64,000 nt of DNA from Lingula anatina (Eukaryota; Animalia; Brachiopoda), in contig CM120643.1 of NCBI GenBank assembly GCA_051362555.1, positions 23,440,848-23,504,847 on the forward strand, in the 5' to 3' direction. The stretch's first letter is position 1. Each line of letters begins with the position of its first letter. Below, piece by piece: positions 14,157 through 64,000 of this stretch. The notes beneath the pieces were generated by a model. The model had not been told where the DNA came from and did no database searches. It saw nothing but the letters and a program-made list of their open reading frames with translations. The position numbers were made by a program, and so were the translations under genes.

Positions 14157-17100
14157 TCAGCATATATGCAACACTGACAACACATTCAAGGAAAACAAGT
14201 GGGTCTAGAGAATCACAGGAGTGATCATTGTTAGGAAAATACAGGTCAATTCGAAAATCTGCCTGATTGTACCATTTTTAGTTATATTTTTTTGCATATT
14301 TTGAGAACTCTGTTGATTGCATTTTATAGAGCTTGTCAAGCACAAGACTGGTGGTAGTGTCCCTATTTTTTTTTTTTTGGGGGGGGGGTCCATTCGAATG
14401 CGCTTACTCCAGCTGGTGGTACAATATCCAGAGGCGGTATGGCCTCTCTGATCCTCTAGTCATTAAAAATTAATAGTCATTATGCTGTTAAGCATTATGC
14501 AATATTGCATCAAAATTGAAGAGAACTCTATTCTAGGCACTGCCGCTATAGTGCCCATGAAAGGAAAACCATGTCACTCACTCTTTTCAAATTTACAGGA
14601 AAGAAACATGGGCCTTATATGCAGCTTCCTTTGAAAAAGAAAAAAAAACATTATTATTTAATGCTCAAGTTGTATTGACATATTCTTAGAAACACAAAAA
14701 TATAGTTTCTTTGGTACACTCAAGAAATGACTTAGCAGCATTTTTGGTGGTGTGTGCAGCAGCTGTTGCATTTTTATTACACCGTGGGCAGAGAGGTTAA
14801 CAGAAAAGCCAGAACTAGCTTAGGAAGATTCTAAGCTCTCATCAAGAGGTTTCCCACAATCCCCAGGTCATGTGCAACTAGTTATTTTCTAATAGACTTG
14901 TGAAGATTCTTTTGTCTATAGCTATTTATATTAGTTTGATCTTACCATCCAATATTTCATCTGCTTGCAGTCAGATTTCATCAGGGAATGAGGTTGTGAC
15001 AGGTATGACAACCTGTCACCCCCTCTGGTGTGCTATTTGGTCAGATCCCCCCCCCTTGCCTGCCCCTCCCTTAGGAGTGGTAGGTAGAGGTTGGGTAGCT
15101 CAGTCCCATCATTCCGATTCAACTTGGCCCCATGTAAGCGGATGTTAATTGCTTCAAGAACTTTCCGGTGTAGATCTCGTGGCTCTCTTTCCAAGATTAT
15201 TATGTCTTCTATGGTTGTTGATGTTATACAATGCCCTGTCTGTTCCTGGTGTTGGCTGAGGGCAGATTTTTTATCATGTTTTTTGATCGATTTTTGATGT
15301 TCAGCGATTCTTTCAGTTAAGGAACGTCCTGTCTCTCCGATGTATTTCTCTCCACACACCTGACACTCACACTGGTATACAACTCCACACTGTTCTCCTG
15401 GGTCTAATTTGTCCTTTGGGGATACTAGGATGCCTCTTAGTGTCTGTCCTGCCTTATGGTGTAATACTACATTCCTTTTTCTGAATGCTCTTTTTAGCTT
15501 TTCACTAACCCCTTTCATGTAAGGTAGTACTGCATATCCTTTGGGTTTTTCTTTTTCAGTCATGTTCTCGGGCCTTTGTTGTTTTTCTCTTCCTTTCTTT
15601 TCCCCTTCTTTTATAGCCCATTCTGGGTAACCACAATTTCTAAAAGCCACTCTGATTTTTTCCTTCTCTATCTCTACCTTGGGTTTCTCTTTTATCAGTG
15701 TGTCTGCCCTATGCATCAGCGTCTTGATGATTCCTATCTTCTGTTGGACAGGGTGGTGGGATGTCCACTGAAGGTAGTGGTCTGTATGCGTAGGTTTTCT
15801 ATAAATGTCTGTTGTGATGTTATCATTCTTCCTAATAAGCTGTAAGTCCAGCATGGGTAATGTCTGGTTGTCATCTTCCCTTTCTATTGTGAACTTAATG
15901 CTGTCATGTTGTGCATTGATATGTCGGAAAAGCTCCTCCTCGTGTTGTTTCTGTATTATAACCCCTGTATCATCGACGTATCTGGCCCAAAATTTTGGTG
16001 GGTGGGTGGCTGTTCTTAGTGCCTGCTCTTCAAACTCTTCCATGAATAGGTTGGCCAGGACAGGAGAGAGTGGAGAGCCCATTGCCATTCCATATACCTG
16101 TACGTAAATACGCCCTTGGTACCGGAAGTAGGTTGTCTCAATTGTTAGCTTTAGTAAGTCCCCAAAGTCCTCTGGAGGAAGCAGTGTTCTGTTTTTCCAG
16201 GTTTTATCCTTCTTGGCCCTTTCTACTGCCATATTTGTCACTTCGTTGCCTGGTACGCTGGTGAATAGGGCTGTTACGTCGAATGAGGTTAACACCTCCC
16301 CCTCTTCCAGAGTGATCTCTTCCACTTTTTTCCACTTTTTGTATAACATCAACAACCATAGAAGACATAATAATCTTGGAAAGAGAGCCACGAGATCTAC
16401 ACCGGAAAGTTCTTGAAGCAATTAACATCCGCTTACATGGGGCCAAGTTGAATCGGAATGATGGGACTGAGCTACCCAACCTCTACCTACCACTCCTAAG
16501 GGAGGGGCAGGCAAGGGGGGGGGGATCTGACCAAATAGCACACCAGAGGGGGTGACAGGTTGTCATACCTGTCACAACCTCATTCCCTGATGAAATCTGA
16601 CTGCAAGCAGATGAAATATTGGATGGTAAGATCAAACTAATATAAATAGCTATAGACAAAAGAATCTTCACAAGTCTATTATAATAACATAGCTAATGAA
16701 ACTGTTCTACACTAGTTATTTTCTGCTTTTTGTCTGTACAATGCATTTGACAGCTTTGCTGCCTTGTTTTTCAGTGAAATTCATATCAGTATAACTTTGA
16801 AGGTCTCATCGGCCCAAAACATGCCATAAAGTTTAAAGAGATAATAACTCTTCGTTTTGGCCAAAAAATGAATTTTCCTGGAGTAAACAACAATTTTCCC
16901 ATACTTACCAAAGGTCCATGAATCCATTTTTACTTTCAAAGTTAGTCCCTGGTTTTTTTCTAAAAAATTTGGTTTTTTGTTAAAATCTTATAAGAGATTA
17001 TAAGAGAGTATAGCCATCAGTGGAGGTCACGTGGTCTAAAGACAAGCTCAGATATCAGAATAATAGCTATAACTTCCGTTTTTGTGGTAAAACAGAATAT

Positions 17101-38197: not shown

Positions 38198-41100
38198 ACA
38201 GTTATTTCGATTACAATATCAGTGGGTGAAACGATTATTAGTCTAGCTACCTGTTGCTCGTAACCGTGTTTGATTTAACCATCACAAATAGATTGAAAGT
38301 ATGCCTCTAACCGCTGCCTCATGTCCAAAAAATTAGACAAAAAGAACACATAATTCTGTAATGTCAGTTCTCTATAGACAATCATCTCTTACATATATAT
38401 TCTACTGACCTTGCCCTATAGAAAGGGCACAGAGGAAATGCATTCACTAAATTTACTGCATTGGCTCCTTCATTGCTTGCGACGTGCGTCTTGGACCACG
38501 CACGTCTCACTTGCGAACTCCTTGCGAGTGGAGCAAGTTACGTTTGTCGCCACTCTGTTCGCAGATTATTAATAGAATCTTTTGGACATGCCCAACAGCC
38601 TCCGTAAATGCATACAGGCTGTCTGCGAACTCCAAATTTCGCAAGAGGGACTTGTGTTGCACGGGAGATTCTGCGCAAAATTTGGACGCAAACAGGCCGT
38701 AAGAGAGACAAAGCAAAATGATCGACTATCACGGCGTCCCAAATGACATGTGAAAACATCAAAATGAAAATATAGACATCAGCTTTCACGAGATGTTGAA
38801 CTATCTACAAATTTAGTTAAAATGGACATTAGTATTATATCCAGGGTAGCATGCTGAGAATACACACTTATAAGCGCACCTCCTTCTAATTTCTAATCGA
38901 AAAATTTCTCTTTTATTATCCGCCCGTTCCGAAAAGAACAAAAAGTAAGGGAAATGATGTAACGAAATTCTGTGCTATTTTTGTGCTATTTGGCAATACT
39001 TTGCGATAGGTACTGGCTTAATCTTTCAATAAGATATTTGCAATACATGGTGTTATATGTTCTTGCTTCCATGTTTATAGTGATTCTGTGACTCTGTCAA
39101 CCCAGACAAACCGCATTTCTTATCTGAAAACTCAGATCAACATCAGGCAATGGGTTTTGGGAAAGGGGGCTATTGTATGACTTCAATACATGCAAACACA
39201 ATATTTGTATAGCCTAATATCCTCGGTGACTGAAAGAAAAGTATAGTCATGTAGTTGACTGGGATTAAGGAATTGGGTAAAGGTATGAAGATACCCCAAA
39301 AATTATTTTTCAAATATCTCTAAGGGGGGAAAACCCTTACCTCCCTCCCCCCCTCCGGCAGCCTGCGATCCTGACTGCAATCAATGCCTTATCAAGGCAT
39401 TTTCAGGCAACACTGTTGTCCCACCTTTAAGATACAGGTATAGGTGAATTTCACGTGATTTATGGAGCTCGTGTCTGTCTAATAATCCTAGTCATTTTTA
39501 CCACCTGAGGCTTTAGCTATGGACTAAGTATATTCTACAATTTTCGTTTCCTCGTGCCCATTATTGCGATGAATTCTTATAAGTCAAAATGAGCGATCTG
39601 TAGGTGCAATCTTGTCCACACGCAACATGTGGCTGTCATGTCCATAACATTAAGTGATTAAAGCTGTAATCGGGCAAGAGAAGCTTAGAACAGTATGTCA
39701 CATTCTCTATTCATACATTCATTTTGATCACGATCAACATGCACTGTATTGGTGTTAATTCATGCCTAAACTGTTGGACGAGGGCTCCCATAGGTGTACC
39801 GGGTAGATAGCTTTCGAGTTATATGAAAAAATGTCAATGGCTCCATAGGGCCATTTTTATTGAGCTCAAAATGTAACATTACAGTCGAAGCGAAAATTTT
39901 GGACCCTAGAAATTTTTGTTCCTATGAAGTTTTTTTCTTGATTCGGGTTTCCATGAGGTGCTAAACAAATTAAGATTGGTTAGCACTTTGGCAACCTTCG
40001 TCAACTATAAATATCCAAGATGACCAATAGCAATAAACACCCTTGCATATGAAAGGCCCTCGATCTTGGCTGATAACCCTATTTCAGCCCAACCATCCAC
40101 TAGAAATGTGTCAATGGACGTCGCTTTAGTGTTTAGTGTTTTTGAACATTTTTGACAAAATGCCATTTGTTTCTCAAAGCAACCAAACAAAATTTTAAGA
40201 AACTAATTATAGCGAAAAATGTCAAAGTCACTTAAAGTTTTATTTGATTGGATAATTTCTCAATCAAAATGTTATTTTCTATCCCGTGTATACATGTGAC
40301 AACTGCAGACAGGATTTTGGGAACTATCCAATTATGACTTGTAATGGATATCATATTCTAGATACAGTGTTTAACCTAAAACAAGGCTCACAGATATTGG
40401 CTATAAGAATATATTCATTGTGTTGTTGACAAATTATAAATCAGAATTCATATGATCACGCAAAAGAGGATGAGACGAAAAACAGGTGAATGCGTGTGAT
40501 CCGTATGGAGATATAAGGTTTAATGCTCTTTTGTATAAAAAGTAAGTTAATCAATACACGTTTGGAAGCTTCAACTTGGCGTCGTACGTCGACGCTATAA
40601 CACTAGGTGAGAAATCTAACGTTAATAAGTGTAATTCACTTGTTTTAATCCTTTAACTAGTTATATGAAGAGTGATTCTAAACAACTACACCAAATGTCT
40701 GTTTTTATCCAACACTGTTTCAAGTTTGGTTTCGACTATTTAACCAAACTTTAATTTTTTTAGTGCGTATTGAAGCATCACTTCCAGGTTAAAGTTAATC
40801 TTTGCCTTAAAGTTATTAAATCCTGATATAGTTACGTTGAAGAATTGTAATTCAGAATGGCTGTAAAAACAAACCACGGCTATGCGACAGAGACAATTGC
40901 CAGTGTAAACTTTCCAAAGCAAAGTTTTCATGGCTTGTCATAATAACATATTTAGTTCCTGAAAAGTGCAAACCAATGAAGTGATTAAACCCTAGCAGAG
41001 CTTAACGTATTACAAAATATCATTCTCAATTTATAATGAGAACATATCCTTATAAATATACTTTAATTTTAATTTAATTTTCATTGTGATTTTCAAACAG

Positions 41101-42472
41101 TAAATCTTTTGAAACAGAGACATTATTGTTATCTTCATGACATGTGTAACGTAGCTTAAAGAGCCAGCAAATGTACCAATTGTGTAATTTCGTTTTCAGT
41201 AAACATCATCATTATAAAAGCAGTAGCCTATACCCCATGTGCAAATGAAATAGAACGTATGATGAGATCAGATATTACCATTCTATTAAGTGCATGGCTT
41301 GACATTTGCAATTTCATCAGTTTAGAACATGTACCGGTAATTCTCGTCTCAGGGGGGCGGAGAGTCTTAAGTATAAATGTTATACCAATATCTGTGGGTT
41401 GCTGGGCTTACATGTTATTGATATTGTAAGGAACGGTGCCCCTAAGCATGTCCCACGCACCCTAAGATGTCGCCCCCCTCTCGTGACACTTGTCTCGAGA
41501 GACTAGTTAATATCTTAACTTTATAGGTAATATTATTTCAATAAGACATGTTAAGTAGATCTGGATATATAGAACAGGTGGTGTGTAAATTATACACTCT
41601 TTCGACTTATGACTTAGGGCTTAAGAACTAAGACAGTGGAAATAAAGCTGTTTGGAAATCCACAACTCATGTTGTTTACTTCTTCTCGATCTGTGAATTT
41701 AAACCTTACAATATAATGATATTAAGAAGAATTAGAAACATTTGTTATAGTTCGAATTGACTACCAAATGCTTATTCTTTATCATAAGCAGCGTGACAGC
41801 TGAGTGGTTTTCCTTTCATTACAGACCGCTACTCCGTTTCCAATGAACGGTAAGCTATCGACCTTGTCTCTTTCAAACGAGGGCATGTTGGTAGATACAG
41901 GTTTACATTGCTGATATTCTATTAAATAAGACACGTATCTTCGATTTGAAAAATAATAACGTTGATCAATCTACATAAAAATTCCCCTTGACTCTTTTGG
42001 CAAGTTCTACCTCCCAATTTACACACACTCATAAATTGTGACTGCTGTGCAAGCTCACCTCCTGCAATTCACAAATTTTACCAAATATAAAATGAGTGAC
42101 AATTGTATGATACTCACAATGTGTGTGCGTAGAGGGGGTGTGCAAAAATTAGTTTTCTCTGCACGAAATGACCAAGTTATAATTAGTTAGAAATAAACTG
42201 CCTTTTAAAACAGTAATTAATGAACACTGTCTCAGAGCGACAGACTTGAACAGGAATCAAGGGGAGATTTAAAAATAGAACAGATAGTACGAGCTATCTG
42301 CAAATAATATGTTTATGTTTCCGGGCTTATATGTATGAGTCACTGATTGGGATATCTCTATTCACAGAAATTTAATACAAAGTCTCTATCTGTTGTTTTC
42401 AATGTCTCTATTCAATATTTTCTACGATTATTGTTACAAGAAAAGAAGCACCTAACGGAGTCTACAAACTCG

Positions 42473-46197: not shown

Positions 46198-49100
46198 CTA
46201 AGTTCGTGTAATGGCTGTGTTTCTTGTAAACATCTCCCTTAACTGTGTTCTAAATTGAGAGCCACTGATTAGAAAAATCAGTAAATTGAGCGCATGATAT
46301 AACAACTCGCCAACTCTACCAACATAAAAAAGATACCCTACAAACACAGGTATTCCTTCACCAGGCACATATGTTATGAAAACCATACTTATAACAGATG
46401 CCGTACAAAGAATAAGAAAAAAGAGAGACGAAACCAATAGAGACACGGTGCTAATGATTTCCTTATTCTTTTTCTTATATCTCCCGCCAGATGTGAGTTC
46501 TTTTCGGGATTTTCTTTGAGCCCAGATAAAATGTATTATCTTGATATTCATCCCGATAATGGCGAGTAACATCATGATTCTTCCGATGATGCGTATTGCT
46601 GCTACAATTCCTAAGCGTCTCTGCCATACACGGTATTCCTCAACAGCTAACGCACAAGGGGCATCAGAGTACATTAAGCTTGTAAAGGCCACGGCTCCAG
46701 ATGCTGCTGCCCCGGCATAAACCATCTGCGAAAATGAAAGAAGTGACAGTTTCAGAGACTGGTTCGTGGCATAAGATTACGGTAGCTGATCAACGTCAGA
46801 TGGTGTAAGTTACCGCATTGTTACAACCCACTTTGAAAAAATTACGCAATTTGAAAAAAAATTCAAATCGCGTCAAAAATGGGACAAAGTCAACGCGATT
46901 TGAAAAGAAATTTCCGTTAAGAACATACATTCATAAATTATTTCATTTTGCTTGAGGTTATGAATTCAGTCGACATGCTTTTTATCAACTTATTTTCTTG
47001 AATGAATCTGTCGATTGCAAAAGGCAAGAAGAAATTTCGGAAAATGCAAAGGGAAAATGAAACTTGATAGGCCAAAATGAAGTGAAATTATTATAAATTG
47101 TTCCTTATTTTCAAGAATATTATGGGGAAGACCCCCAGACTGCTTGTTTCTATGAGGAGTTCTATTGTTGTTGATTTTTTGACAATCACTTTCATTTTAT
47201 TCCTGATGTCCCTGGTGTCTGACAGGCAAAAAGCTGTCTTGAGGAGGTCAAATTGACTTTGCCCCGCCATCCAAATCAATTGCTGGGCCTAACTAGACAG
47301 ATGATTGTCCAAAGTATCCATATCAATATATTAAATGACTCAAATTGGACACAGCCAGTGTGACCTCCATCTGTTTATGGCTGCTAATAATGCTCTTTAG
47401 GCCTTGTTGTTGATTCTAAAGGCCTACTAAAAGATGGCCTAGGCCTGGGCCCGGTTTATCAAAAAATCTAAGCAAAAAGTTTTTGCTTAGCTAAAAACTT
47501 TACTTGCTAATAAAAAGATAAGTAACTAATATTTACAGTATTTATAGGCCTACAACTTCCCAGCAACCACATTTCTACCAAATAGGCCATTGTATATATA
47601 TGCCTATAGAAAGTCAGGTGATTAGGCATAGGCAGATACTCATCTTAACATTTTTCTCAAATTTTTTCAAAGTGTGTTAAAATGTGCCTGTTTGACGCAA
47701 TTTGAAATATTACATTTTTCTTTTAAATTGCGTTGAGTCTGTCCACGATTTTAACGCAATTTGAATTTTTTTTCAAATCGCGTTGACTTTGTCCCATTTT
47801 TGACGCGATTTGAAAATTTTTTTCAAATTGCGTAATTTTTTCAAAGTGGGTTGCAACACTGCATATCATTGGCGGGCCTACGTGCATGGTGGGGCACGTA
47901 TCATTAGCGTCGGCCCCTCCCCCATCCACCACCCCAAACGAGACAAAACAAAATTATTTTCCATCATAAAAAGGTAAAATGTTTTCTTCCTTTGACCCTA
48001 AAAATCCTGATCTACACCTGTTTGTACATGTACCACAGGGAAAAAATAAGGGAGTATGGGAAAAGCTGACGCAGCTTTTAACAATGCAGATAATTGTAGT
48101 TCAACAGTGCTTTTTAAAAAAATATGTTATGACTGTCAAGTGAGATTTTTCTTGTTAATGAAAGATCAAATCAAAAGCAAAATCTTCAATAGTATACGTC
48201 CTGTGCTTCGGGGTACATGTATACACACACTACTGGACAATAGAAGTGTCACCCCCTGAATAAGAGTAATCAAAGTTATAATGCCTGCATGGTCTACTTA
48301 TAATGTGACTAATGAGTATAAAACCGCTGTACCATGTAATTGTATTGTTGATCTTTTTGTGAAATTTGATGTTAATAGTTCAGGGAATACCCTTGATCTA
48401 GTTTTGTCAAAAAGACCTCAGCAAATCTGTGATTTAGCCGTCTGGCCTGACGGTTTTTGCTCGGACCATTATCCAGTAGTGTTCATGTTTGAAATGAATG
48501 TGAGTAGGGTGAATCAGAGGTGCGGTCAAGGTCAATTTTAGATTGGAAGCATGCAGATCTTCAAGGGCTGAGGAATGTCCTTCGTGAGAGGCTTGGTCAT
48601 GGTTCTAATTTTAGGGCACATAATGCAAACAATGATGTTGAACATGTGTGGAATGAATGGCTGTTTGTGGTAAATGAGGGAATAGAATGCTTCAAGTAGG
48701 CCTTGGTGGATTACGGGAGAGCTAAAGCATTTGTCAAATAGGGTGAAGTCAGCGTTGCGTTATAAAGCTAGAAGGGAAAGTAACAACTTGGAATAAGTAT
48801 AGATTTTTGAGAAATATGTTGAGGGATAAGTCCTGTGCTAGTTACGAAACATATATCGAAGCACTAGTTAGGGAGTCAAGGTCCAATCCGAATCGCTTTT
48901 GGTCGTTTTATCACAACAAAGTAAATGCTGATAGGATACCGAAATCTATCAGTTACAATGGTGTGAAGGGAGTTGATTGCGGTGATAAAGCCAAATTGTT
49001 CAATGATTACTTTACTGTCGTCTTTCCTAATGATAATATAGTATTGCCAGATATTGACATTGTGGTCGAACCTTCGTTAGAATGTTTTAAATTTACGACC

Positions 49101-51307
49101 GAAGAGGTGTTAAATTGTTTTTCAGGTCCTGATGGAATTCTGCCAAAACTATTGAAGGAATGTGGCGCATAATTAAGTGACTCTTGTGCGTTCTTATTTA
49201 ATTGTAGTATGTTGACTCGTGAGCTGTTTAATATTTGGAATATCACGCCTGTGAACGAAGAGGGTAACAAGGGTAAGGTAGAAAACTACAGGCCAGTATC
49301 TTTGTTATGTACTATTTCCAAGGTTATAGAGAGGTTGATCGCACTAAGCTGACCGAACTAATCCTACCTAAACTTAATGATGGTCATCATGGTTTTCGTG
49401 CACAGCGTTCAACTAGCACCCAACTAGTACAAGCATTACATTCAATAGGGGACAATTTGGATAGAGGTGAGCAGATTGATGTCATTTATCTAGATTTTTA
49501 GTAAGGCGTTCGACGTCGTGTCTCATAAACTTTTGGTACATAAACTGCGTAGTTTTGGTATAAATGGTAGATTATTAAACTGGTTTAGCGGATATCTATT
49601 ATTTTTGCATTATTTTAAAGTGATATCATACTATTATTTGTAAGTTGTTTTATTACGCTCTTTTAAAAGTCTTGTATATAATCTTGTACTCAATAAATCA
49701 TTCAAATAAATAAAATAATAAAGTAATAAAATGATACCAGGAGCATATCATTCCACAGTCATTTATCTCCCCCAAAGTATTGGTTCAGTAGCGGTGACAC
49801 TTCTATTGTCCAGTGTGTGTACAACTGAATCGCAAAGAACTGTTCTTTTCTTTACTCTAAAAAAATTGATGTCGTAAATACTTACCGATCTGAAGAGAGT
49901 TTTTCTGGTGCATATGAAACTGGATTTGAACGGGAAACAGACAAAAAGAAATCTGTCAAGTGTTATGATGAAGATAAGAGTTGCAGCCCAGTCTGAGGTG
50001 AAAATGTCTGCAACGGATAATGTGTTGCAAAGGGCACGTGTGATCTTAGTGAAATCTACTATCTTATTTGAATCGGCCACAATTCCTACCAATAATTCAC
50101 TCAATGCTCTAAGAAAATGCGCTATTCCAAGGGTGCAACACAAGAAGGTCTTGGTTTCTGATCTTCCTTTTAGTTTTCTTTCACCGCGCACAACAACAAC
50201 CACGAGGATAATGTTGCACAAAAAAGACAACGGACAGAGAATATACACAATGTATATATATACTTTAATCACCGCCAAAAGGGCATTTATCGTCAGAGTG
50301 GAACCGCCGGACAACCAGATGAGACATTCAATTGGATCACTTTTTACCACCATTTCAAGGATACGCGGTTTGGTTTTATCCACGTCCATTGCACACGCGC
50401 GCTTTGCCAGTTTCCGCGTGTTATTTAGAACTTCCACAGGAAGTACACTGGGTCGAAATGGACATGATAGACCTAAATCGCTAATTTTCCCGAGCTGCTC
50501 TGATATGTCTTGTCGAAGGCAAAGGTACAACTTCTTACTGTTTTCATTATTTTTCATTGTGCTTTCGGCCAGGCACTCTTCTTTGTTCATCTCGTACAGC
50601 ACCGTGGCTGTGAAAACCTCCTCTGACAACTCGACGATCCCACAATACTTAGAATATGTGCTGTTAGAGAACCAAGAGCCAGTCATTCGAAAATTTTCCG
50701 TCAGTCCTCTTGTAACCTTCGGTGAGCAATAGAAATATCTTTCTTTGAAAACAGTTTCCAAATCTGATGAAGAAGGATCATGATTAACATCAACGTCCTG
50801 GTTTTGTGGCGATGCTTTGATGCATACATGCGTGCTTGAAGTAGCGTTGGCTGTGAAGTTTTTACCTTGTGTAAAGTTACGGTTTCCCCATGCATTATCG
50901 GTTTCGTAGACGATTTGAGACATGTGCTCCAGGCCGTCTTCTATCAGACCGTCGACCATTTTCCTAAAGTCAACAAATGTACTTCTTTTTGCGCTGTTTG
51001 TCAGCTGACTGCAATTTTCTTGTTCAACGCCCATTAAAACAAATCTCCCTCTCCTCATGTCCAACATACTGGTGTAATTAAAGACACACGATGAGTCCAT
51101 CGTCTTCAAGGCGACTTCCACTGAGTTGATTGGCATTCCAAATGTTGAAGTTATCTGGTCATATAATTGCCTTGTAAAGTTTAATTGACATCCGGACAAC
51201 ACTTGAACTATACCCACTCGGCGGGAGATAGGATTTTCACTAAATAAATTATTTATCTGAAAAAATGAGAGTTGCAAGATGCAAACAGGAAAAATGTAAA
51301 ACAACAT
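46198..51307 (-). CDS. Atypical class A (rhodopsin-like, peptide-receptor-like) GPCR with a long Cys-rich N-terminus; 2 exons, about 649 aa
   Basis: Exon 51307-49886 (hydrophobic N-terminus, about 330-aa ectodomain, TM1 ...LSFLCNIILVVVV, TM2, TM3 C...ITLDRFLFVCFPF) joins in phase 0 (gtaagt / cgcag) to exon 46725-46198 (TM4-TM7, ...HALNLLIFLISGSQFR helix 8). Confidence 0.85.
46816..47861. mobile_element. Non-autonomous hAT-like element with about 100-bp TIRs in the GPCR intron
   Basis: CATTGTTACAACCCACTTTGAAAAAATTACGC... and its reverse complement ending ...GTGGGTTGCAACACTG. No intact TSD. Confidence 0.7.
48224..49819. mobile_element. MITE copy 2 (TA flanks, Tc1/mariner-like) split by a CR1 fragment
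   Basis: The two halves match 42473-42692; TA at 48222-48223 and 49820-49821. Confidence 0.8.
48378..49730 (+). mobile_element. Degenerate CR1/L2-type LINE ORF2 fragment
   Basis: GNTLDLVLS...SDH (APE end), NPNRFWSFY, GPDGI, NYRPVSLL, HGFR..RST, DVIYLDF/KAFD, with stops and frameshifts; jumps to an AATAAA-rich tail. Confidence 0.85.
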
Positions 51308-52632: not shown

Positions 52633-54155
52633 TAGTCATTTTTACCACGTAAGGCTTTAGCTATGGACTCGGTATATTTCGCTATTTTCGTTTCCTCTTT
52701 CCCATTTTTGCGGTGAATTCTTATAAGTCAAAAAGAGCGTTCTTTTGGCACAATTTCGCCCCCACCTAACGTGGCTGTTATGTTTGTAACATTCATTGAT
52801 TTATGCTGTAATCGGGCGAAAAAAATTATCAAGACAATCTCACACATTTCCTAATCATCCATTAATTTTGATCACGATCAACATGCCCTATCTTGGTATT
52901 TATTAACATTTAATTCAGAGTTTTGAAACGAGATATACCATAGGTATAAAAAGCTTTCGAGTTACGTGAAACAATGTGGCTTCATCAGAACATTTATTAA
53001 CTCAAAGGTAATAGGCGAGTAGTGACTTCAATTTTAGCTTAGATTTCACTTAAACAACTTTGGGCAACTGTAAATATGAAGATGACCTTCAAATCCAATG
53101 CATATGCAAAACCCTTGGTCTTTGTTGATACCACTATTTCAGCCCAACCATGCTCTAGAAATGAGAAAATGGAAATCCCTTTTAATCAAAATATAATTTC
53201 TTAATCACAATGTAATTTTCTATCACGTGTATACATGTAACAACTGCGGAGAGGACTATGGAAACCACCAGATTAAGATATGTAATGGATATAATATTCT
53301 AGATATTTTTCTGAAAACAGGGCTCACAGATATTGGCTATTAGGATATATTCAATGTGGTATTGACAAATTGAAAAGGAAAATTCATATAATCACGCAAA
53401 AGAGGATGTAACGAAAAACGTGAATGTGTGATCTGTATGGAGATCCATTGTTTATTACTCTGGTATTTTATATAAAAATTAAGTCGATAAATAAACGTTT
53501 AAAAGCTCCAACTTGGCGTCGTCGTCACAATAACACTTGGTTAGAAATCTGACTTTAATAAATATAATTCCCTTACAGTTGTAAGTTTTAATGATTTACA
53601 TAGTTATGTGAAGGGGAAGTCTAAACAAGTAAACAAAATATCTATTTCTTTCAACATAGTAATAAGTTTGGTTTCGACTATTTTACTGAACTTCAAGTTT
53701 TAATGAGCGTATTGAGGAATCATTTTTAAGTTAAAGTTAATCTTTGCTTTAAAGTTACTAAATCCTGCTGTGGCCACAATGAAGAATTGTAATTCAGAAT
53801 TGCTTTAAAAACAAATCACAGCTATGCGACTGAGACAATTACCAGCGTACGCTCTCCACAGCAAAGTTTTGATGGCGTGTCATAATAACATATTTAATTC
53901 TGGAAAAGTGCAAATCAATAAGATATTTAACCTCAGCAGAGCTTAACGTGTTACAAAATATTATTCTCTATTTATAATGAGAACATATCCTGTATATTTG
54001 CATTTCTTATTTATAAATATACTTTATTTTAATTTAATTTCCATGTGATTTTCTTACAGTAAATTTCTGTAATAGAGATATTATCATGATTTCCATGACA
54101 CGTCTAACGTAGCTTAAAGAGCCAGCAAATGTACCAATTGTGTAATTCATGTTAT

Positions 54156-54165
54156 AAGATGGCGG
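54156..54165 (+). promoter_or_regulatory. YY1-like motif at the LINE 5' end (putative internal promoter)
   Basis: AAGATGGCGG about 9 nt from the element start; matches the YY1 consensus. Confidence 0.45.
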
Positions 54166-54386
54166 ACAGTGTAAACAGCTTACACATGGCTCTCTAAAAT
54201 TTCTACTATTATGCCTGAACCAAGTTTCTCAAACCAGCCAAACAAGTGAAAATAGGAATTTAAACACACAAGGATCTGAAAAGTGAAGAAAAAAAGGGTT
54301 GGAATTACACTATTCAACTACAGTAAGTGATATAAAACAGGACTGAGCTGGACTGGACTGTAAACAAAGACCTGAGGCAAAACAAG

Positions 54387-56534
54387 ATGGTGGATCACTA
54401 CAGTACACTAGGAGTGGTGCCTGAGGCCACTCCAGAAGAGATAAAAGCTGCCTTTACAACAAAAGCAGGTGAGCTACAAGATTTATGTGAGAACAATCAG
54501 AAACTATTAGAGTCATACAGTATTGCATTTTCTACTTTGATGAATGGAAAAACCAGGATAGTATATGATAGAGAAAATGGTATATCCTCCAACTATGATT
54601 ATGCTGATGAGTACCAAGGGCCAGCTATTGACTCAACTACTCATAATGCCCACTGTGTCGTGGTGAAAATGTCCACGGTAAGCCAAGTTAAACGATGGCT
54701 TGAGATATGCAGAACATACCATAAACCAGAATCTGAAAATGAAATCAATAGTGGAACAGGGACCCAACTCAAGTTTCCATATACTAACTCATCAGGTGCT
54801 ACACTAGGCACAGTTTCACTTTCATTCTATCACACATCAAAGTCCAAAAAGTTACACATTCAAGGAGCAGCCTATATGCTATGGTTGGCAAATGATTACC
54901 CCAAGATTTCACTCCTGGTATCATCACCAAAGAAAATTCAACCACTAAACCCAGAGATTAGCACTCAGCAGTCTAGATCCACGCCACCTGTTAGTGATAC
55001 AAGTATCATAGATGAAAACACCCAAACACTCCGCAAGGGATTCAAAACAAAGGTGCGACCAAGTCAAAAAGAAGTGAAAAATGAGAGAGAGATATCCAAA
55101 ATACATGAAACTTTACAAGCAGTAGAAAACCAGTATTCAGAAATAATTTTCAACACAGCAGATGCCAAAAGAGAAGAGGCCAAGTCCAAAAGCATACTTA
55201 GTGACCAAATAGAGACAATAAAAACAACAATATCCCATATCTCAGCTTTATCAGACTCTAGATACCTGGAAACCACAGCTCTACTATCCAAAATCACAAA
55301 GCAGCTTTACTACCTCACTGAGAAAATTGATGGCAAGCCACAATGTAGAACAACAACTGTCACCACAGGGACACAGTGTGAGACATCAACCACCATCTCA
55401 AAACAAAAGACAACAATCAACAAAGGGACACAAAGTGAACCATTATCACCCCCCAAACAAAAGGCGACAATCAGCAGTGGAACACAGTGTGAAGAAGCTG
55501 ACTACTTAAATATACAGAGGGCCTCCTCTCCACCTGTACAAGCAAATAAGGGACAAGATAAAGATGTTAACAACACTGATAACAAAGCTGATAGCTCCCT
55601 ACCACCGGTATCCGTCAAATTGTCACCTGTCAACAAAGCTGCAAAACAACCTGCAATATCACATGTACCAGAACTAACAGCAGTAATACCACCTCCAGTG
55701 TCACCTGCATCTGTCCCAGCATGTGAACCAACCACATCTTCTAGCACAGAAGTACCAGTTATAACTTCCAGTATAGACAATAGTCACCCACAAACATCAG
55801 CCAACCCAAGCACCAGAAATGAAGGCACAGTGAATATATCAATCTCGGAAATAAATACCTCTTCCCCAGAGGTCGACAATGTTGTAATATCCGACTCCAT
55901 TGGGAAAGGAATTCAAGCTAAAAAACTCTTCCCAAAAACAAATAGCAGTTGCTATGTTTTAAATGGAAAGAAAATTGCGGACGCAAAAAATCTCATGACT
56001 GAAAAACACTTTGGACACCCCAAATCAATTACTATCATCATCGGATCCAACAACATCAGCTCTAACCAACCACCTAATCAAGTTGCAAATGAAATGAAAG
56101 AACTGATACACTGTGCGAAGCAGCAATATCCAACCACAACAGTCATTGTCTGCAACATCCTCCCACGCTGGGGAAATAAAAGATTCAACGATAACGCACA
56201 GGAAGCGAATGCCCTTACACATGAATTTTGCAAGACACAACCCAGTGTAAAATATATGCACAATACAAACATTGTGTGCAGAAGGGATTTCTTCGCTTGG
56301 GATGGGATCCACCTATCCCAATCTGGAACAATTGCCCTTGCCCGAAATATCAAGCTAGCAACAGGATCCAACCCTTCTACCAATGGAAGATACCCACACC
56401 CTCCACAACCCCAACACCCATGGAGTAATAGAAAGACCTACCATCATCGTACTAACCAGCAACACCATCTCCGCTTTGGTCATGAACTAAAACTGTTGCG
56501 TGAATGCTTAAGCAAACTTGAAAGCATACTTTAA
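54387..56534 (+). CDS. LINE ORF1p: J-like domain, alpha/beta domain, coiled coil, P/S/T-rich linker and SGNH esterase
   Basis: 715-aa intact ORF. DHYSTLGV...EEIKAAF...AFSTL...RIVYD at the N-terminus; VISDSIG, IIGSNNI and DGIHLS at the C-terminus. Confidence 0.88.
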   Translation: MVDHYSTLGVVPEATPEEIKAAFTTKAGELQDLCENNQKLLESYSIAFSTLMNGKTRIVYDRENGISSNYDYADEYQGPAIDSTTHNAHCVVVKMSTVSQVKRWLEICRTYHKPESENEINSGTGTQLKFPYTNSSGATLGTVSLSFYHTSKSKKLHIQGAAYMLWLANDYPKISLLVSSPKKIQPLNPEISTQQSRSTPPVSDTSIIDENTQTLRKGFKTKVRPSQKEVKNEREISKIHETLQAVENQYSEIIFNTADAKREEAKSKSILSDQIETIKTTISHISALSDSRYLETTALLSKITKQLYYLTEKIDGKPQCRTTTVTTGTQCETSTTISKQKTTINKGTQSEPLSPPKQKATISSGTQCEEADYLNIQRASSPPVQANKGQDKDVNNTDNKADSSLPPVSVKLSPVNKAAKQPAISHVPELTAVIPPPVSPASVPACEPTTSSSTEVPVITSSIDNSHPQTSANPSTRNEGTVNISISEINTSSPEVDNVVISDSIGKGIQAKKLFPKTNSSCYVLNGKKIADAKNLMTEKHFGHPKSITIIIGSNNISSNQPPNQVANEMKELIHCAKQQYPTTTVIVCNILPRWGNKRFNDNAQEANALTHEFCKTQPSVKYMHNTNIVCRRDFFAWDGIHLSQSGTIALARNIKLATGSNPSTNGRYPHPPQPQHPWSNRKTYHHRTNQQHHLRFGHELKLLRECLSKLESIL

Positions 56535-56996
56535 TATGGTATCTTAACGGATTATTTGAAACCTGAGACATTTAAAGTATTCTAAAGTGACACTGACCTA
56601 TTTTGTATTAACAAAGTAAATATGTAAGTATTTACACTTATCTTCTTATCCTCCACCCCTTATGTGACAGTGAACGAGGAAAAACATGTAAGTACTCTAT
56701 TATCAACATCTAAAAAATCAGGTTAGTGATACTTAGCTGAACGTCATACTCAATAGTAAACAATGGCTCAATGTTACAATCATTTTATTTATTTATTTAT
56801 TTATTTTAATACTTATTTTAATATTCAATATCAAAGTGATAAGCAGATAAGCATTGGTCAAATAATCACATAGGGCAACATTATCATTGAAGCATTTTTA
56901 TATTAGAGAAACTTGTCTAGGTGAAATAGAAAATAAGGTTCAAGGCATTTAGTGTTATTTAAGAGCTATTACCCATCTTAATACTCACGTTTGATA

Positions 56997-59900
56997 ATGT
57001 TGCGTATCGGCATGCGCAATGTAAGGGGGTTAGCAAAAAAATTAAGTGATGATAACTTCATCTCCACAGTACAAAGTTTTGACATCTTCGTATGCATAGA
57101 AACTTTTAGCACTGTAAGATCAAAGATAGCACTACCTGGTGGCACCCATGGACACACTGAACAACTCAGAACAAAAACTAAAATGAAAGGCAGACCATCA
57201 GGTGGAATAGTGATATATTACAAAAAAGAACTTATGAAAAGCATCCATGTACTTAGTAGTAAGAGTGAAAATCTACTGTGGGTTAAACTTGCCAGTGAAC
57301 ATGTTGGTCTAGAGAAAGATGTGTTTTTATGTGCAGTATATGTTAAGCCCTGCAATGGCCCTTCAGATGAAAGAACTATAGAAATATTAGAAGAGGAAAT
57401 TGCTAATTATCAACCACATGGGTCAATATGCCTAATTGGAGATTTTAATGCAAGAACCGGGACATTACCCGACTTTATTAAAGATGATAATATGTTTGGT
57501 ATACCTATGACTGCTAGTTACCCAACAAATAGATTGTCAGAGAAGAGAAATAATATTGATACTATAGTCAACACACAAGGAAAAACTTTGCTGGAATTGT
57601 GTAGGAGTAGCAATTTAAGAATCCTCAATGGTAGAACTAAAGGTAATTTAGTTGGCTATCCTACCTGCTTTAACAAGCATGGATGCAGTGCAGTAGACTA
57701 TGCCATTACAAGTGAAGGACTGATGAGCAAAGTAATGTATCTTACAGTGTCACCCATAGATTACCTATCTGATCATTGTCTGTTGGACCTTGCAATCAGC
57801 ACCACAGGTACAAAAGCCATGTCAAATGCCCACTCAATCCATAAATTTAAAGACCGCTACATCTGGGATACAGAGTCAGCTGAAAATTTTTTAAAAGCTC
57901 TTGAAACTGAGGAAAGTCTAAAATCAATCAGTCAAGCACAGACTACACACTTCCCAGTCTCTAAAGATGGAATCAAAAATGCCTGCGATAAACTCACAGA
58001 TATCATTGAAAAAGCTGCAGACATGTCTCTTCGTAAAAGAAAAGCTGCTACAAACACAAAAACAAAACAGAAACCAAAAAGAATGAAAAAACAACCATGG
58101 TTCGACAACACTTGTTCTGAAATTAGGAGGAATATCAAACATCTTGGAAAACTACTACAAAATAATCCGCATAACAACTATATCTCACAAACTTTCCACA
58201 TAACTACAAAGAAATATAAACAACTGCTAAGGCAAAAAAAGAGGGAATACAAAGATGCACTGTTAACAAAACTGCTGAATTCTGAAAAAAACAACCCAAA
58301 AGAATTTTGGCAAACACTAAAAACCCTGAAGGAAAGAGAGGACAAAAGTAACATAATCAGTCCAGATACCTGGCAACAACATTTTCACCAACTCTGTGGA
58401 ATCCCCCCTAGAGATAATCAACAAATAAATGATGAAATAAAAAGATACGAGGAAATGGAAGGAGACCTTGTCCTAAATAGTCCCATAACAATTGGAGAAG
58501 TAAAGAACGCTATCAAAAAACTAAAAAATGGCAAGGCAGCTGGTGAAGACTCTATTAGAAATGAAATGTTAAAAACAGGAGTAAATTACCTAGTAGGACT
58601 AATAACAAAAATCTTTAACTTAGCACTAAATACATGCGAAACCCCGGATGCCTGGAACTTAGGCCTAATACTGCCCTTATATAAATCTGGAGATCGAACT
58701 GACCCATCAAATTATAGAGGCCTATGCATAACAAGCTGTTTAGGGAAACTGTTCAATTCTATACTGACAAATAGAATCACTCAATTCATAGAAACAAATC
58801 AAAAGCTAAGTGAAGAACAAGCTGGGTTCAGACCTGGGTATCGCACAACAGATCATATATTTACCCTAAAATCTGTCATAAACAAATATCTAAACAAAAA
58901 TAAACGTCTCTATACCTGCTTTGTCGATCTTCGTAAAGCCTTTGATACAGTCTGGCATAAAGGTCTGTTTATAAAACTCCTGAGACAAGGTATCAGAGGC
59001 AAAATATACAAACTCATAAAGTACATGTACAATAATACAAGACTAGGCGTATCGGTTCACACTGGTTTCACTGAACCCTTTTTGTCCAAAATTGGCATAC
59101 GGCAAGGTGATAACCTTAGTCCAGTACTTTTCAACATTTTCATAGATGACATAAAAAGTGAACTTCACATAAATGATACCTCAACAAGAGTTGATGGTCT
59201 AAGTCACATACTATACGCTGACGACCTAGTCTTACTCTCACAAACAAAAGAAGGACTACAGACCCTACTTAACAAACTTGAAAACTACTGTCTGAAGTGG
59301 AAATTGAAGGTAAATGAAAATAAATCTAAAGTTATGGTATTCAATAAGCTTGGGAAAATTGACCCACATACGTTTACCATAAATAACAGACCTATAGAAA
59401 CAGTTAAGCAATTCTCATACTTGGGAATAATTTTTACGAACACAGGATCCTTAAAACAGACGATGGAAAACCTCAAACAAAAGGCCCTCAAAGCTATGTT
59501 TTTCATTAAAAGGGATGCTAAATTCTCAAGAAATTTCTTCACCCCTACTAACCATGAAACTTTTTGACCAAATGATTAAACCAATCCTGCTATATGGCTG
59601 TGAGGTTTGGGCACAAGAGATATTTATAGACAAAAAAATGACACTACACAAATTGAATAAGATGCCATTCGAACAGATACATTTAAAAATGTGTAAATGG
59701 ACACTAGGTTTAAGAAAAACTTCCAGCAGTAATGCTTGCAGGGCAGAACTTGGACGCCTTCCACTGTATTTGGACATTGTAAGTTTGGTGTCCAAATACA
59801 GTGCAAGACTGGACAACCTTCCAACTCACAGACTAGTCAAACAAGCTTACGACATGGAGCAAACAGAAAAGGGAAAAAACTGGTTTTGGGCTACTACAAA

Positions 59901-60441
59901 TCTTTCGGCATGCTGGGAAGTTTACCACCCAAATAACAACACACATACTAAAATCCACAACCACCAATACCTAAAGGAAGAAATAATAAAAAAAATAAAG
60001 TCAAATTTTTGGGAAGAATTGCAAAAAGGAGAAAACAATAAACTCAGAACATATGGAAAAATTAAACACACTTATGAGGCTGAACCTTATGTAAAACTCA
60101 ACGTTCCTTTAGCTCAAAAAAGGGTATTAGCAAAAATGAGAATCAGTGATCATGAATTAGAAATTGAAAGAGGGCGATATACAAAACCAAAGAAGCCAAT
60201 TGACAAAAGGAAATGCCCCCACTGCGACTCAGTAGAAGATGAAGCACACTTTTTTCTAGAATGCAGTGAACACAGAGTCGAACGGGAAATACTGTTCGCT
60301 TCCATACCAGAGGTGAATTTGCAGGGTCCAACAGACAATAAACTATCTATTTTACTCAATCCACTCTCTGCGCAGAGTGTGATTGCCATATGTAAATTTG
60401 TTAACAGTGCAATTAAAAAGCGTGTATCCCTGCGTGGATGA
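56997..60441 (+). CDS. LINE ORF2p: APE endonuclease, reverse transcriptase and C-terminal CCHC; one frameshift near 59510
   Basis: NVRGL, IGDFNAR, VDY, SDH (APE); NYRGL, QAGFR, FVDLRKAFD, GIRQGDNLSP, YADD (RT); ELGRLPL, RISDHELEIERGR, CPHC...EDEAHFFLEC in the +1 frame from 59515. Confidence 0.92.
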
Positions 60442-61240
60442 GCATAGTTTATTACTTAAATTATTCTTTTTAATATTTGTATTAGTTAGAGAGCCTGTAA
60501 ATGTAAACCATTTCTTTGTGCTCAATAAATTATTATTATTAAATTATTATTATAATTTCGTTCTCAGTAAACATCATCATTATAAAAGCAGTATACCCCA
60601 TGTGCAAATGAAATAGAACGTATGATTTGATCAGATATTACCATACTGTTAAGTGCTTGGGATTTGGAATTTCATCAGTTAAAACATGTACCGGTGTACC
60701 ATGAAACTCTGACTCCCTAAAAAGGTGACTCATTATAAAAACTGACTCCCCAGTCAAATATTCATAATGATTCCCCTTATGAAATTTTGACCCCCCCCCC
60801 CCCTTTCATAAATATGATTTTATTTGAGTATATGACTTTTGCATAATGAAGGATACATTGGCTCTTTTTGTTAGTTTGCAGGTGAAAACTTTCATGAGAA
60901 AATAAGAAAAATAAAAAAGTGTATTTTACCACACAAGGGCTCCCGTATGAAAAAAGCTAATTATTTGACATTTGGTCAACATTTCAACGTTTTCTTTTGG
61001 TATACCTTATGAAGAAGATGTTGGAAATATTTGAAAGTTCGATAGTATAGTATTGGGTGATAAAAAATTTAAAAAATTACGAAAAATCTACATTTTCATA
61101 CCCATGGGATTTTGACTCCCATGAAGATTTTGTCCTACTTAGTCACCATGCCATTGTAGAACAGTTTCATTAGCTATGTTATTATAATAGACTTGTGAAG
61201 ATTCTTTTGTCTATAGCTATTTTTTTTAGTTTGATCTTAC

Positions 61241-61285
61241 CATCCAATATTTCATCTGCTTGCAGTCAGATTTCATCAGGGAATG
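61241..61285 (-). ncRNA. Minimal hammerhead ribozyme (PLE pLTR)
   Basis: Reverse complement of the motif at 16581-16625. Confidence 0.7.
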
Positions 61286-61536
61286 AGGTTGTGACAGGTA
61301 TGACAACCTGTCACCCCCTCTGGTGTGCTATTTGGAAAGAGAGCCACGAGATCTACACCAGAAAGTTCTTAAAGCAATTAACATCCGCTTACATGGGGCC
61401 AAGTTGAATCGGAATGATGGGACTGAGCTACCCAACCTCTACCTACCACTCCTTAGGGAGGGGCAGGCAAGGGGGGGGGGATCTGACCAAATAGCACACC
61501 AGAGGGGGTGACAGGTTGTCATACCTGTCACAACCT

Positions 61537-61581
61537 CATTCCCTGATGAAATCTGACTGCAAGCAGATGAAATATTGGATG
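61537..61581 (+). ncRNA. Minimal hammerhead ribozyme (PLE pLTR)
   Basis: Same motif as 16581-16625. Confidence 0.7.
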
Positions 61582-64000
61582 GTAAGATCAAACTAAAAAA
61601 AATAGCTATAGACAAAAGAATCTTCACAAGTCCACCATGCCATTATTTTCCACATACTTACTACTACCTGCAGGATTTGGATTCCCATGTCAAAATGCTA
61701 CTTATTTCATTTTTAGCGTAGGAAATCAGCCTCTGTTGTCTATATAGCTTTCCACGGGGCAGTCATTGAAGTTGATCAATGTACATAAAAATTTCCTTTG
61801 ACCCTTTTGGCAGCGTCTCTCTCCCAGTTAAAGAACCATTTTACATGATAAATGGTTCGTGATTTGAGGCCTGTGATCCCTATTGGTCAGGAGAATGCTC
61901 TTTTCGGCACTTGGTGACTCCAGTGTTTCTTAGTTAGGCTATCGTCAACATGGGTTTCATAGTTGACCCGATTGTTTCTACATCAAGTCAAATTTCTGTT
62001 GCACCATTTGAAAAAAATCTTAACGCGGTAGAAGTGCATTGTCATAGAAGACTTCATTTTGCTTACGTGTATCTTTCTCACGATAAACAAAAATATGTTC
62101 AATAATACATATATGGGAGGGCAGAGCATCCGAGCCTTTACAAACGGGTGAGGGATAAATGTTGCAACTGTCTAGGACATGGGGCACAGTTGCTCACACG
62201 CACTCACACAGACAATGTTAAAACGAAAGAAAACACCTATGCAGCCTGAGAAAACACACACCCATGAATTGTGACTGTTGTGTAAGCTCGCCTACTGCAA
62301 TTCACAAATATTACAAATAAAAGTAAGTGACAATATGATTATACTCACAATGTGTGTGCGTGGACGGGGTGTGCAAAAAGGTCTTTTTTTTTTTTACGAA
62401 ATGGCCAAGTTATAATTAGGTAGAAGAAACCACCTTTCAAAACAGTATTTACTTAACAAGAGAGATGAACCTAAACAAAAAATGAGGGGGAAAATTTTAA
62501 GACACAAATATTGCGATATATCAGTGAACAATATGTTTATTCCCTCACATAAAACATACAATGAATACGTGGTACATCGTCATTTACATTTTGATAGAGG
62601 TGTGTGCACTCATGTGGGTTCTGCTTTGCATAAATGAAACAATTAAAAGAAAAAAAACCTTAAACCTTAAAATTGTTTTAATGTTTAAACCAAATTAAGG
62701 TTTAATTTGACCTTACCTAAGAAGAAACAAAATTAAATCAATGAAGTTTTATAACAAGAAAAACATTGCTAATAGTCAGATATCGATTTAAGTGGATTTC
62801 TGTAAATTTTCTGTTTAACTGAAACTTTCAGGGAAGACCTTTTATTATTTCCCAACCCCTTAAATAGATGCGCAAAGAAAATAACGTGATCTGAGTTAAT
62901 GTTCATGATTACATGTAATGGTGATTTAAACTCTTTATGAAAATTACCAGAGATCCCTTAATAGAAGACAAGAAAAATATTTGGTCGGAAAGCTTGAGGT
63001 AGGATTTACTTTTATATCAATATGCACTGCCCTTCTGGACCTAGATTCCCAGGTGTATTTATACGGAGCCAGGACATATATTTCTGTCGGACATAATTTT
63101 CTTTCACACTGAACAAGTGTCCTACACAACAAACGTCCGTGCACGTAATATTAAATATTACATGTCTATACAAGTATTATAAACACGAAGGGATAAGTAT
63201 CGGTAATTTTCAGACGGTCTCCAGCAGCATCCACACAGGCTGATGGGTAAGGCGTCTGGATGAAAAAGCGATTACTTTATATATGAAAAGTGTGTGCTTC
63301 CCACTTGAACATGACAATAAAAAGGAAAGGCGCAAATTTGAAAGTATACGTACAGTGATATGATTTTGATTTTTTAAAATTAAAAATACATAAGTAACTG
63401 AAATTTGAATAACATTTAGTATTTTTGGTTCTTCTTTTCTTTCTCTATCATTTATTTTATTAAGGTGGGTTCGGAGTTTTATTTGAAATAAATTATTTTT
63501 TCTGAATAAAATACATGTTTAATTATAAATAACATAATCTCAACTAAACCTAAAAAATTACATATTCTTCAACAAAAATGAACACACAAAGCTACGTCTG
63601 GAATCGTCAATTGCTATTTCAGTTGGGAAAATATGTCCGACTAGGACATCGATTCGGGTCTGCAAGACTTAGAATACTTAGTAACAGTTGTCTTACGGAC
63701 ATGCATTACGGCAGATATCATTCATCCCTTCACGACCATAGTTCTGGAAATACTGAGAGATCTCAGTTGAATTTTAGCTATGTGTTGAGATTTTGAGATA
63801 CCCCCAACGATTTCCACTCAGTCGCAGTAATTGGCCTTTTACATGCATGATTTATGTAACCCTCATTGTGGATAGCATGCACTGATAGGCGGCATTAAGT
63901 AAATAGGATTAACTTGTCTCATTCCATAACTGCGACTGATTTTGCCTAATTTACTTACTAGTAGCCAGTTTTGTTGAAAAGTGTATGTTCCCAGTTAATA

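Follow-up and report, generated by a model that had tools for sequence, protein, structure and literature searches.

An HPD-less J-like domain and a predicted TBP-like lobe form an N-terminal module in a LINE ORF1 protein

The window analysed here, a stretch of 64,000 nucleotides from Lingula anatina, holds a full-length LINE whose ORF1 protein (ORF1p) begins with a J-like domain lacking the HPD motif, followed by a second domain with a predicted TBP-like fold. The element is of a known kind, but its ORF1p module is new in the literature searched. Since most of its relatives keep HPD, the module is better read, from the sequences, as a genuine co-chaperone that has eroded repeatedly. The reading that we favour, at a probability of about 0.5, is that the module recruits Hsp70 to the ribonucleoprotein (RNP) of the element in the intact relatives and that the window lineage keeps the J domain as a scaffold.

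Results

A full-length LINE with an esterase-type ORF1p

Self-comparison of the window placed the insertion at 54148-60552, a paralogous repeat at 40252-41338 matching both flanks without the insert. The target-site duplication (TSD) is the 5-bp TAATT, found at 54143-54147 on the left and at 60553-60557 on the right; at the paralogous site matched by both flanks (41144-41225), which is uninterrupted, TAATT occurs once, at 41185-41189. The element, with all its parts on the forward strand, is 6405 bp long with 39% A on the sense strand, and we take it to be RTEX-like from features of ORF2 that include a C-terminal CCHC pattern. It starts with a 5' UTR of 239 bp (54148-54386), which carries near its 5' end AAGATGGCGG, presumably a YY1-like site. 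ORF1 (54387-56534) is intact, with 715 aa in one open frame, and encodes the J-like domain (aa 3-63, 54393-54575), the unnamed, predicted TBP-like or helix-grip domain (aa 84-180, 54636-54926), a probable coiled coil (aa ~213-313, 55023-55325) with weak helical-family matches only (E 0.12-0.69), and an SGNH/GDSL esterase (55809-56348; PF00657, 33 bits, above the cut-off) in which S504, N555/556, D639 and H642 are present. An AT-rich spacer of 462 bp with (TTTA)n (56535-56996) leads to ORF2 (56997-60441), which includes the endonuclease and the reverse transcriptase (EN+RT, 56997-59567), a frame break near 59.5 kb and, in another frame than the EN+RT part, a C-terminal CCHC finger at about 60214-60264. 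AATAAA and a (TTA)n tail (60524-60552) close the element. The APE endonuclease and reverse transcriptase of ORF2, the ORF1 upstream, the short TSD and the simple-repeat tail are those of a LINE, and the SGNH esterase with its Ser/Asn/Asp/His residues makes the ORF1p one of the esterase type (type IV).

The frame break of ORF2 is absent from the run X2 contig and from 6/6 run X18 reads, and is therefore either private to the window copy or an assembly error. Run X2 contigs 99-100% identical to ORF1 reach a depth of 135-174, and more than half of the sampled LINE words are present in 9/10 DNA datasets from 4 studies; the near-identical deep contigs and this wide presence suggest that the LINE family is young. 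RNA reads on the element are few (10 in X12, 34 in X15 and 287 in X18). The X15 RNA pairs on it are all in one orientation, and the J region is covered in two of the five RNA runs mapped (X18 and X20).

The host site of the LINE is an older repeat (53193-54147 and 60553-60695), whose paralogous copy at 40252-41338 represents the empty site. In one run X2 contig the sequence passes from the element, at 54147, to the right flank, which implies an empty allele or a further paralog. Elsewhere in the window, a frame on the reverse strand (15033-16349) with a reverse transcriptase, which we take to be Penelope-like with a GIY-YIG-type part, is flanked by a 346-bp inverted repeat of 99% identity (14887-15231 and 16339-16684). 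An inverted piece, 98% identical, lies at 61155-61632, about 600 bp downstream of the LINE. Two intronless frames, also on the reverse strand (49763-51307 and 46198-46725), have by eye the look of rhodopsin-type GPCRs, one of them with a long extracellular N-terminus.

The N-terminus of ORF1p resembles a J domain without HPD

Pfam PF00226 matches residues 3-61 of ORF1p over the whole profile (1-63/63), with 23.5 bits and an E value of 6.1e-5 for the first 78 aa alone and 18.7 bits for the whole protein; this falls below the curated cut-off of 27.8 bits, which the HPD-bearing relatives pass (47-84 bits). The best PDB sequence matches were the J domains of human DNAJA1 (E 7e-4 to 1.5e-3), whose H stands opposite Q31, P opposite a gap and D opposite D32 (54477-54482). 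HPD, located between helices II and III, is thus absent, and the domain is classed as J-like. A profile of the relatives' J domains, from which the window had been left out, gave the window domain 40.1 bits, compared to -1.7 for the reversed window sequence and 12.0 for the best of 2000 shuffles.

The AlphaFold2 model of aa 1-180 exhibited helices at 4-8, 16-31, 35-52 and 54-63, with a pLDDT of 89.5 and a pTM of 0.81, on a 39-row alignment whose HPD-bearing rows push the model toward the J fold. The 13 structures that match this model best (Z 8.0-10.2) are of J-domain proteins or align over its J part, and Foldseek aligned it to C. elegans dnj-12 with an rmsd of 1.2 A over 63 columns. The hydrophobic core and the four helices are kept in the J part, with pLDDT above 90 outside the loop. 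In PDB and BFVD, Foldseek found no match at E <= 0.001 for this model or for that of the second domain. Profile and model together indicate that the four-helix J fold is present at the N-terminus of the window ORF1p.

The original prediction, read from the letters of the window, had proposed a J domain at this N-terminus, inside the TSD-bounded element and in frame with the intact ORF1, with a QD-containing loop in place of HPD. The Pfam E value, the four helices and the structural Z of up to 10.2 bear out the first point, the TAATT duplication and the single open frame the second and the Q31-gap-D32 alignment the third. Of the checks proposed with it, the Pfam search gave a match over the whole profile, under the curated cut-off, and the model has a J fold close to dnj-12, with no Foldseek match at E <= 0.001.

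The second domain is predicted to be a TBP-like lobe

The second domain, or lobe, reached a pLDDT of 92.6 when folded alone and matches no named family in Pfam or PHROGs. In structure it is matched, at Z 6-7.7, by domains of the helix-grip/TBP-like kind (Roco COR, the RNase H3 N-domain, METTL16 KA1, Med18/20 and RnlA), and on this model a TBP-like helix-grip fold is predicted. Among the top rows the RNase H3 N-domain has the lowest rmsd and the highest identity (Z 7.6, rmsd 2.3 A, 69 residues, 16% identity); the best Z is below 8, the telling level of the tool, and RNase H3 is tied with Roco COR, KA1, METTL16 and Med18/20. Residues G125, G141, Q159 and W166 are invariant across the relatives, and N87, Y148, G160 and L165 nearly so. 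Judged by pattern, not by alignment, the spacing of Tyr148 and the Gln159-Gly160 hairpin is that of RNase H3 Tyr43/Gly52 or one more; Tyr43 and Gly52 contact the hybrid, as described in the available part of PMC4132731.

The Atlas placed an RnlA cluster third at 0.87 for the lobe, which is a lead only, behind two unnamed clusters. One RnlA-like protein matches the lobe hairpin with 7.5 bits, and the match of the E. coli RnlA profile is at chance (hhalign probability 1.4%; 22/1000 shuffles equal it). The two unnamed clusters that resemble the lobe are from a cnidarian and a mollusc (125 and 95 aa; 0.89 and 0.87). To judge from such sequences, a lobe-like domain may be much commoner in ORF1p, also without J.

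The J + lobe module is shared by relatives that mostly keep HPD

A search with aa 1-180 against 1.84 billion representatives gave 41 matches, 38 of which were kept; P0004, with tandem J repeats only, and the unrelated P0007 and P0040 were dropped. The 38 relatives are 20-30% identical to the window, each representing a separate 50% cluster, and they share the second domain, which starts 9-31 residues behind J. This domain scored at least 25 bits in 36/37 element-type proteins, most of which were in the profile, and in 0/68 ordinary J proteins. Among the 34 relatives in which the loop is covered, HPD is present in 24, changed by one residue in four (HPE, HPL, HPV, HLD) and wholly absent in six, all of them named Branchiostoma proteins. 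Related proteins of ORF1 type with an intact HPD, which the original prediction had proposed to look for among ORF1s, were found. Its idea of a chaperone module in a retrotransposon is right as to the J domain, but it had missed the pairing with a TBP-like lobe and the mostly intact HPD.

Behind the module the relatives carry PHD/C1 fingers, helical segments, an SGNH esterase, once a CCHC knuckle and once NADAR; 14 of the 17 long relatives tested match the window esterase, seven of these being HPD-bearing. The single chain of P0028 combines J (HPD), lobe, C1/PHD, NADAR (E 3e-7) and esterase, and is of ORF1 type. P0005 and P0013 carry 'DnaJ' or 'CbpA' type names. Some related proteins, such as P0016 and P0039, which may be fragments, start at the lobe or inside J.

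P0002, the one relative with DNA context, is the ORF1 directly before an EN+RT ORF2 in locus L001. This ORF2, presumably CR1/L2-like, is 25% identical to the window ORF2 over 510 aa, and the J + lobe module occurs in two unlike LINEs, with Q-D at the HPD site in the window and HPE in L001. The occurrence agrees with the swapping of ORF1 among LINEs described in PMC4120745, of which a part was available. The HPD-bearing relatives could instead be host genes or belong to other elements, only the eroded J being on LINEs. This is very improbable: it would suit the HPE of the single relative with DNA context, but in the HPD-bearing members PHD, coiled coil and esterase follow in the same order, and many members sit on contigs of 5-9 kb, as long as collapsed LINEs would be. 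Moreover, the multi-member clusters, such as the 90% clusters of the HPD-bearing P0032, P0042 and P0037 (9, 3 and 3 members), lie on different megabase contigs. From the architecture and these clusters we infer a LINE context for the HPD-bearing members as well.

The PHD/C1 finger behind the module in many relatives also bears on a possible action against silencing at chromatin, in which J and PHD would bring Hsp70 to the loci of the element and the lobe would bind promoter DNA. Plant J proteins recruited to methylated DNA offer a model, SILENZIO is a J protein acting with Hsp70 on TE chromatin (PMC8616336) and TBP lobes bind duplex nucleic acid (PMC7221094), as reported in the available parts of these papers. 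We consider this action improbable, however, as the window ORF1p keeps the module without PHD and without HPD. In addition, the single TBP-type lobe of RNase H3 bound hybrid only and not dsDNA in the part of PMC4132731 available, and a PHD finger is frequent among ORF1ps that have no J (PMC4120745, Table 1).

Other searches added little. The word-based homolog search with aa 1-180 gave no match, nor did the one among longer proteins (1568-4475 aa only); the word-based 'near' search added P0074 as a member, the rest being ordinary J proteins. With alignment A2, locus scans of metagenomes and of viral sequences found none, and L003, the sole locus matched in genomes, was rejected as false, being a diguanylate-type protein. 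Viral scans with the RT, P0144 and P0032 were empty or matched J alone, and the second domain is absent from all of the loci L007-L026. Plasmid tblastn returned ordinary J proteins only, the PDB profile search with alignment A4 matched the PHD part only, and the Atlas search with P0013 gave generic DnaJ clusters only, all under 0.8.

HPD has eroded repeatedly and the eroded J domain appears to be under selection

In the second-domain tree (42 rows, 94 columns), HPD changes fall in three places: the amphioxus clade (98/93), the clade of P0002, P0003 and P0009 (94/80), and P0019, which a supported group unites with three HPD-bearing rows. If HPD is ancestral, at least three erosions have therefore taken place. 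The window, on a long branch, and P0030 are unplaced in this tree. The J tree (105 domains, 68 columns) allows neither the donor nor a single origin to be discerned; in it the window falls with the HPL and HPV members at a weak support of 85, HPE being adjacent. This position possibly marks a stepwise path of loss, or else long-branch attraction. In the amphioxus J-like domains (P0011, P0018, P0033, P0035, P0036 and P0067) a longer lysine-rich segment replaces the HPD loop, unlike the loop of the window, which is shortened.

The basic face of helix II contacts Hsp70. Over 12 positions, the mean net charge of this helix is +3.2 in the domains with HPD (n=24), +2.8 in those with one-residue variants (n=4) and +0.1 in those without HPD (n=7 including the window, which has +1). 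The HPD motif itself is stated to be critical for stimulation in the available part of PMC3237618.

We considered decay of the window copy as the cause of the HPD loss and rejected it, since run X2 (possibly the source sample) has an identical contig over 54156-54529 at a depth of 152 and run X6, of another study, an identical piece over 54345-54550. A sister subfamily of about 82% DNA identity (82 differences in 450 bases) was found in contigs of two further studies. The variant codon count covers 40 of 119 rows, with codon 13 and codons 48-62 of J and none in 14-47. Among the rows listed, aa 1-180 show 39 coding changes, of which 29 are at third, 9 at first and 1 at second positions (p 2e-7). 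For J alone, 9/11 of the changes listed against the other copies and the sister subfamily are at third positions (p 0.0014), and two alter the amino acid. This bias, at codon 13 and codons 48-62, with helix II and the loop outside the rows, suggests that the eroded J is under selection. The case that the original prediction had named against itself, a domain private to this copy and evolving neutrally, is contradicted on the first count by the identical X2 and X6 pieces and on the second by the third-position bias.

These data bear on two other views of the window J. In the first, it would be a functionless remnant, kept only through its fusion before a lobe that is needed. The loss of both Hsp70-contact features, the long branch of the window and the related proteins that begin at the lobe or inside J would fit such a remnant, but the third-position bias in codons 48-62, the retained core and helices with their high pLDDT and the amphioxus lineages that likewise keep an HPD-less fold make it quite improbable. 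In the second, the HPD-less J would act as a dominant-negative decoy that binds host J proteins, as in Pam16-Pam18, or Hsp70, with the joint effect of dampening chaperone-dependent Argonaute/PIWI loading or RNP clearance. Both the decoy and this effect of it appear to us rather unlikely. The helix II basic face is lost together with HPD (+0.1 against +3.2), so that binding of Hsp70 in the usual mode is not expected, which weakens the Hsp70 decoy suggested in the original prediction. Moreover, most relatives have intact J domains, which argues against an origin of the module as a decoy, and the wide differences among HPD-less loops, short in the window and long in amphioxus, fit relaxation better than one new partner. 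In favour of a decoy are the erosion of HPD in at least three lineages with retention of the fold, the selection on the eroded J and the presence of Tim16 among the fold matches of the window model (Z 6.3). Pam16, an HPD-less J-like protein, heterodimerises with a J domain without Hsp70 stimulation (PMC3237618), and chaperones act in small-RNA silencing (10.1101/423210, PMC5985592, PMC11194074), according to the parts of these sources available.

Discussion

We thus favour Hsp70 recruitment by the intact relatives, with the J domain of the window lineage retained as a scaffold. The scheme starts from what the analyses above gave directly, namely the J fold, the HPD loss, the second domain with its fixed place, the HPD kept by 24 of the 34 relatives, the LINE context of two unlike elements and the selection on the eroded J. 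An intact J would stimulate the Hsp70 ATPase at the RNP of the element, and Hsp70 would then assemble or strip the aggregation-prone ORF1p coat. By analogy with the RNase H3 N-domain, the lobe may bind the RNA of the element or the RNA/DNA hybrid of reverse transcription. The co-chaperone activity would be optional and would have been lost at least three times; the repeated loss of HPD indicates that Hsp70 activation is not essential. After this loss, J would stay as a J-like scaffold and structural partner of the lobe.

A bolder form of the proposal, which we hold to be unlikely, makes the module the mark of a widespread and old ORF1p class, in at least two unrelated marine-animal LINE clades, that joins an Hsp70 co-chaperone to an RNase H3-type lobe. 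The lobe would sense the target-primed hybrid and J would fire Hsp70 to strip the ORF1p coat; in an arms race over the chaperones of the host, several lineages would later have made of J an inhibitor or a scaffold that lacks HPD.

It is an open question how the ORF1p coats of LINEs form and how they are taken off when reverse transcription starts, and esterase-type ORF1ps are without a known folded RNA-binding domain (PMC3905857, in the part available). The module supplies two candidate answers, an Hsp70 adaptor encoded by the element and a lobe, in an unannotated N-terminus, that may bind nucleic acid; as HPD is present in some natural members and missing in others, the value of chaperone recruitment to a retrotransposon can be tested directly. 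It also carries a warning, as many proteins annotated as 'DnaJ' or 'CbpA' in invertebrate genomes and marine metagenomes are probably LINE ORF1s (e.g. P0005 and P0013). In automatic Pfam tables such proteins will already have a DnaJ entry, as anonymous genes.

No J or TBP-like domain in an ORF1p and no element-encoded J is described in the titles and abstract starts searched. DnaJ has no relevant mention in the available main texts of PMC4120745, PMC13343379, PMC3905857, PMC5203782, PMC11203168 and PMC10294476 and no annotation in the available part of the supplements of PMC5203782, PMC3905857 and PMC10294476; its mentions in the parts available of PMC3753637, PMC8616336 and PMC9940879 concern host proteins. 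The view that no J-domain ORF1p had been described thus agrees with the literature searched, although Repbase/Dfam, unseen supplements or subscription papers could hold one.

Comparison with known systems

The window domain shares the four-helix J fold with the J-domain co-chaperones (PF00226), and differs from them in being retrotransposon-encoded and fused to a TBP-like lobe, in a protein without G/F region, zinc finger or DnaJ C-terminal domain. The polyomavirus T antigen likewise carries an N-terminal J on a multidomain protein of a parasite, where it recruits Hsc70 in cis; it is the helicase and oncoprotein of a DNA virus, whereas the window ORF1p is an RNP coat protein without HPD. Pam16/Tim16 is HPD-less like the window J (PMC3237618, in the part available).

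Like the lobe predicted for ORF1p, those of RNase H3 (Z 7.6) and RnlA (Z 6.2-6.4) are single helix-grip lobes whose hairpin has the pattern Tyr...Gln-Gly. Both proteins are bacterial nucleases, whose likeness to the ORF1p lobe is one of predicted fold, and the parts examined of the papers on these lobes (PMC4132731, PMC7221094, PMC3710099 and PMC3597702) contain no mention of retrotransposons. The MBD of arthropod Copia is likewise a host module kept under selection by an element, there a chromatin reader in an LTR element and here a chaperone adaptor in a LINE (PMC6673714, in the part available).

The window ORF1p also resembles the esterase-type ORF1ps of CR1, L2 and RTEX (ZfL2-1, RTEX_BF), in which an SGNH esterase with catalytic residues stands behind a coiled coil, as it does behind the probable coiled coil of the window ORF1p, and in which no RRM was found (PMC3905857; PMC4120745). 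In the amphioxus RTEX ORF1s, the coiled coil starts at 266-356 and the esterase lies at about 470-720 (PMC3905857 Table S1), which is the layout of the window ORF1, and RTEX_BF in the same table fits it. The ORF1 domains in the available parts of these two papers comprise PHD, RRM, CCHC, Tnp22, esterase and zf/lz, with no domain named in the N-terminal ~270-350 residues, where the window ORF1p holds its J-like domain and predicted TBP-like lobe.
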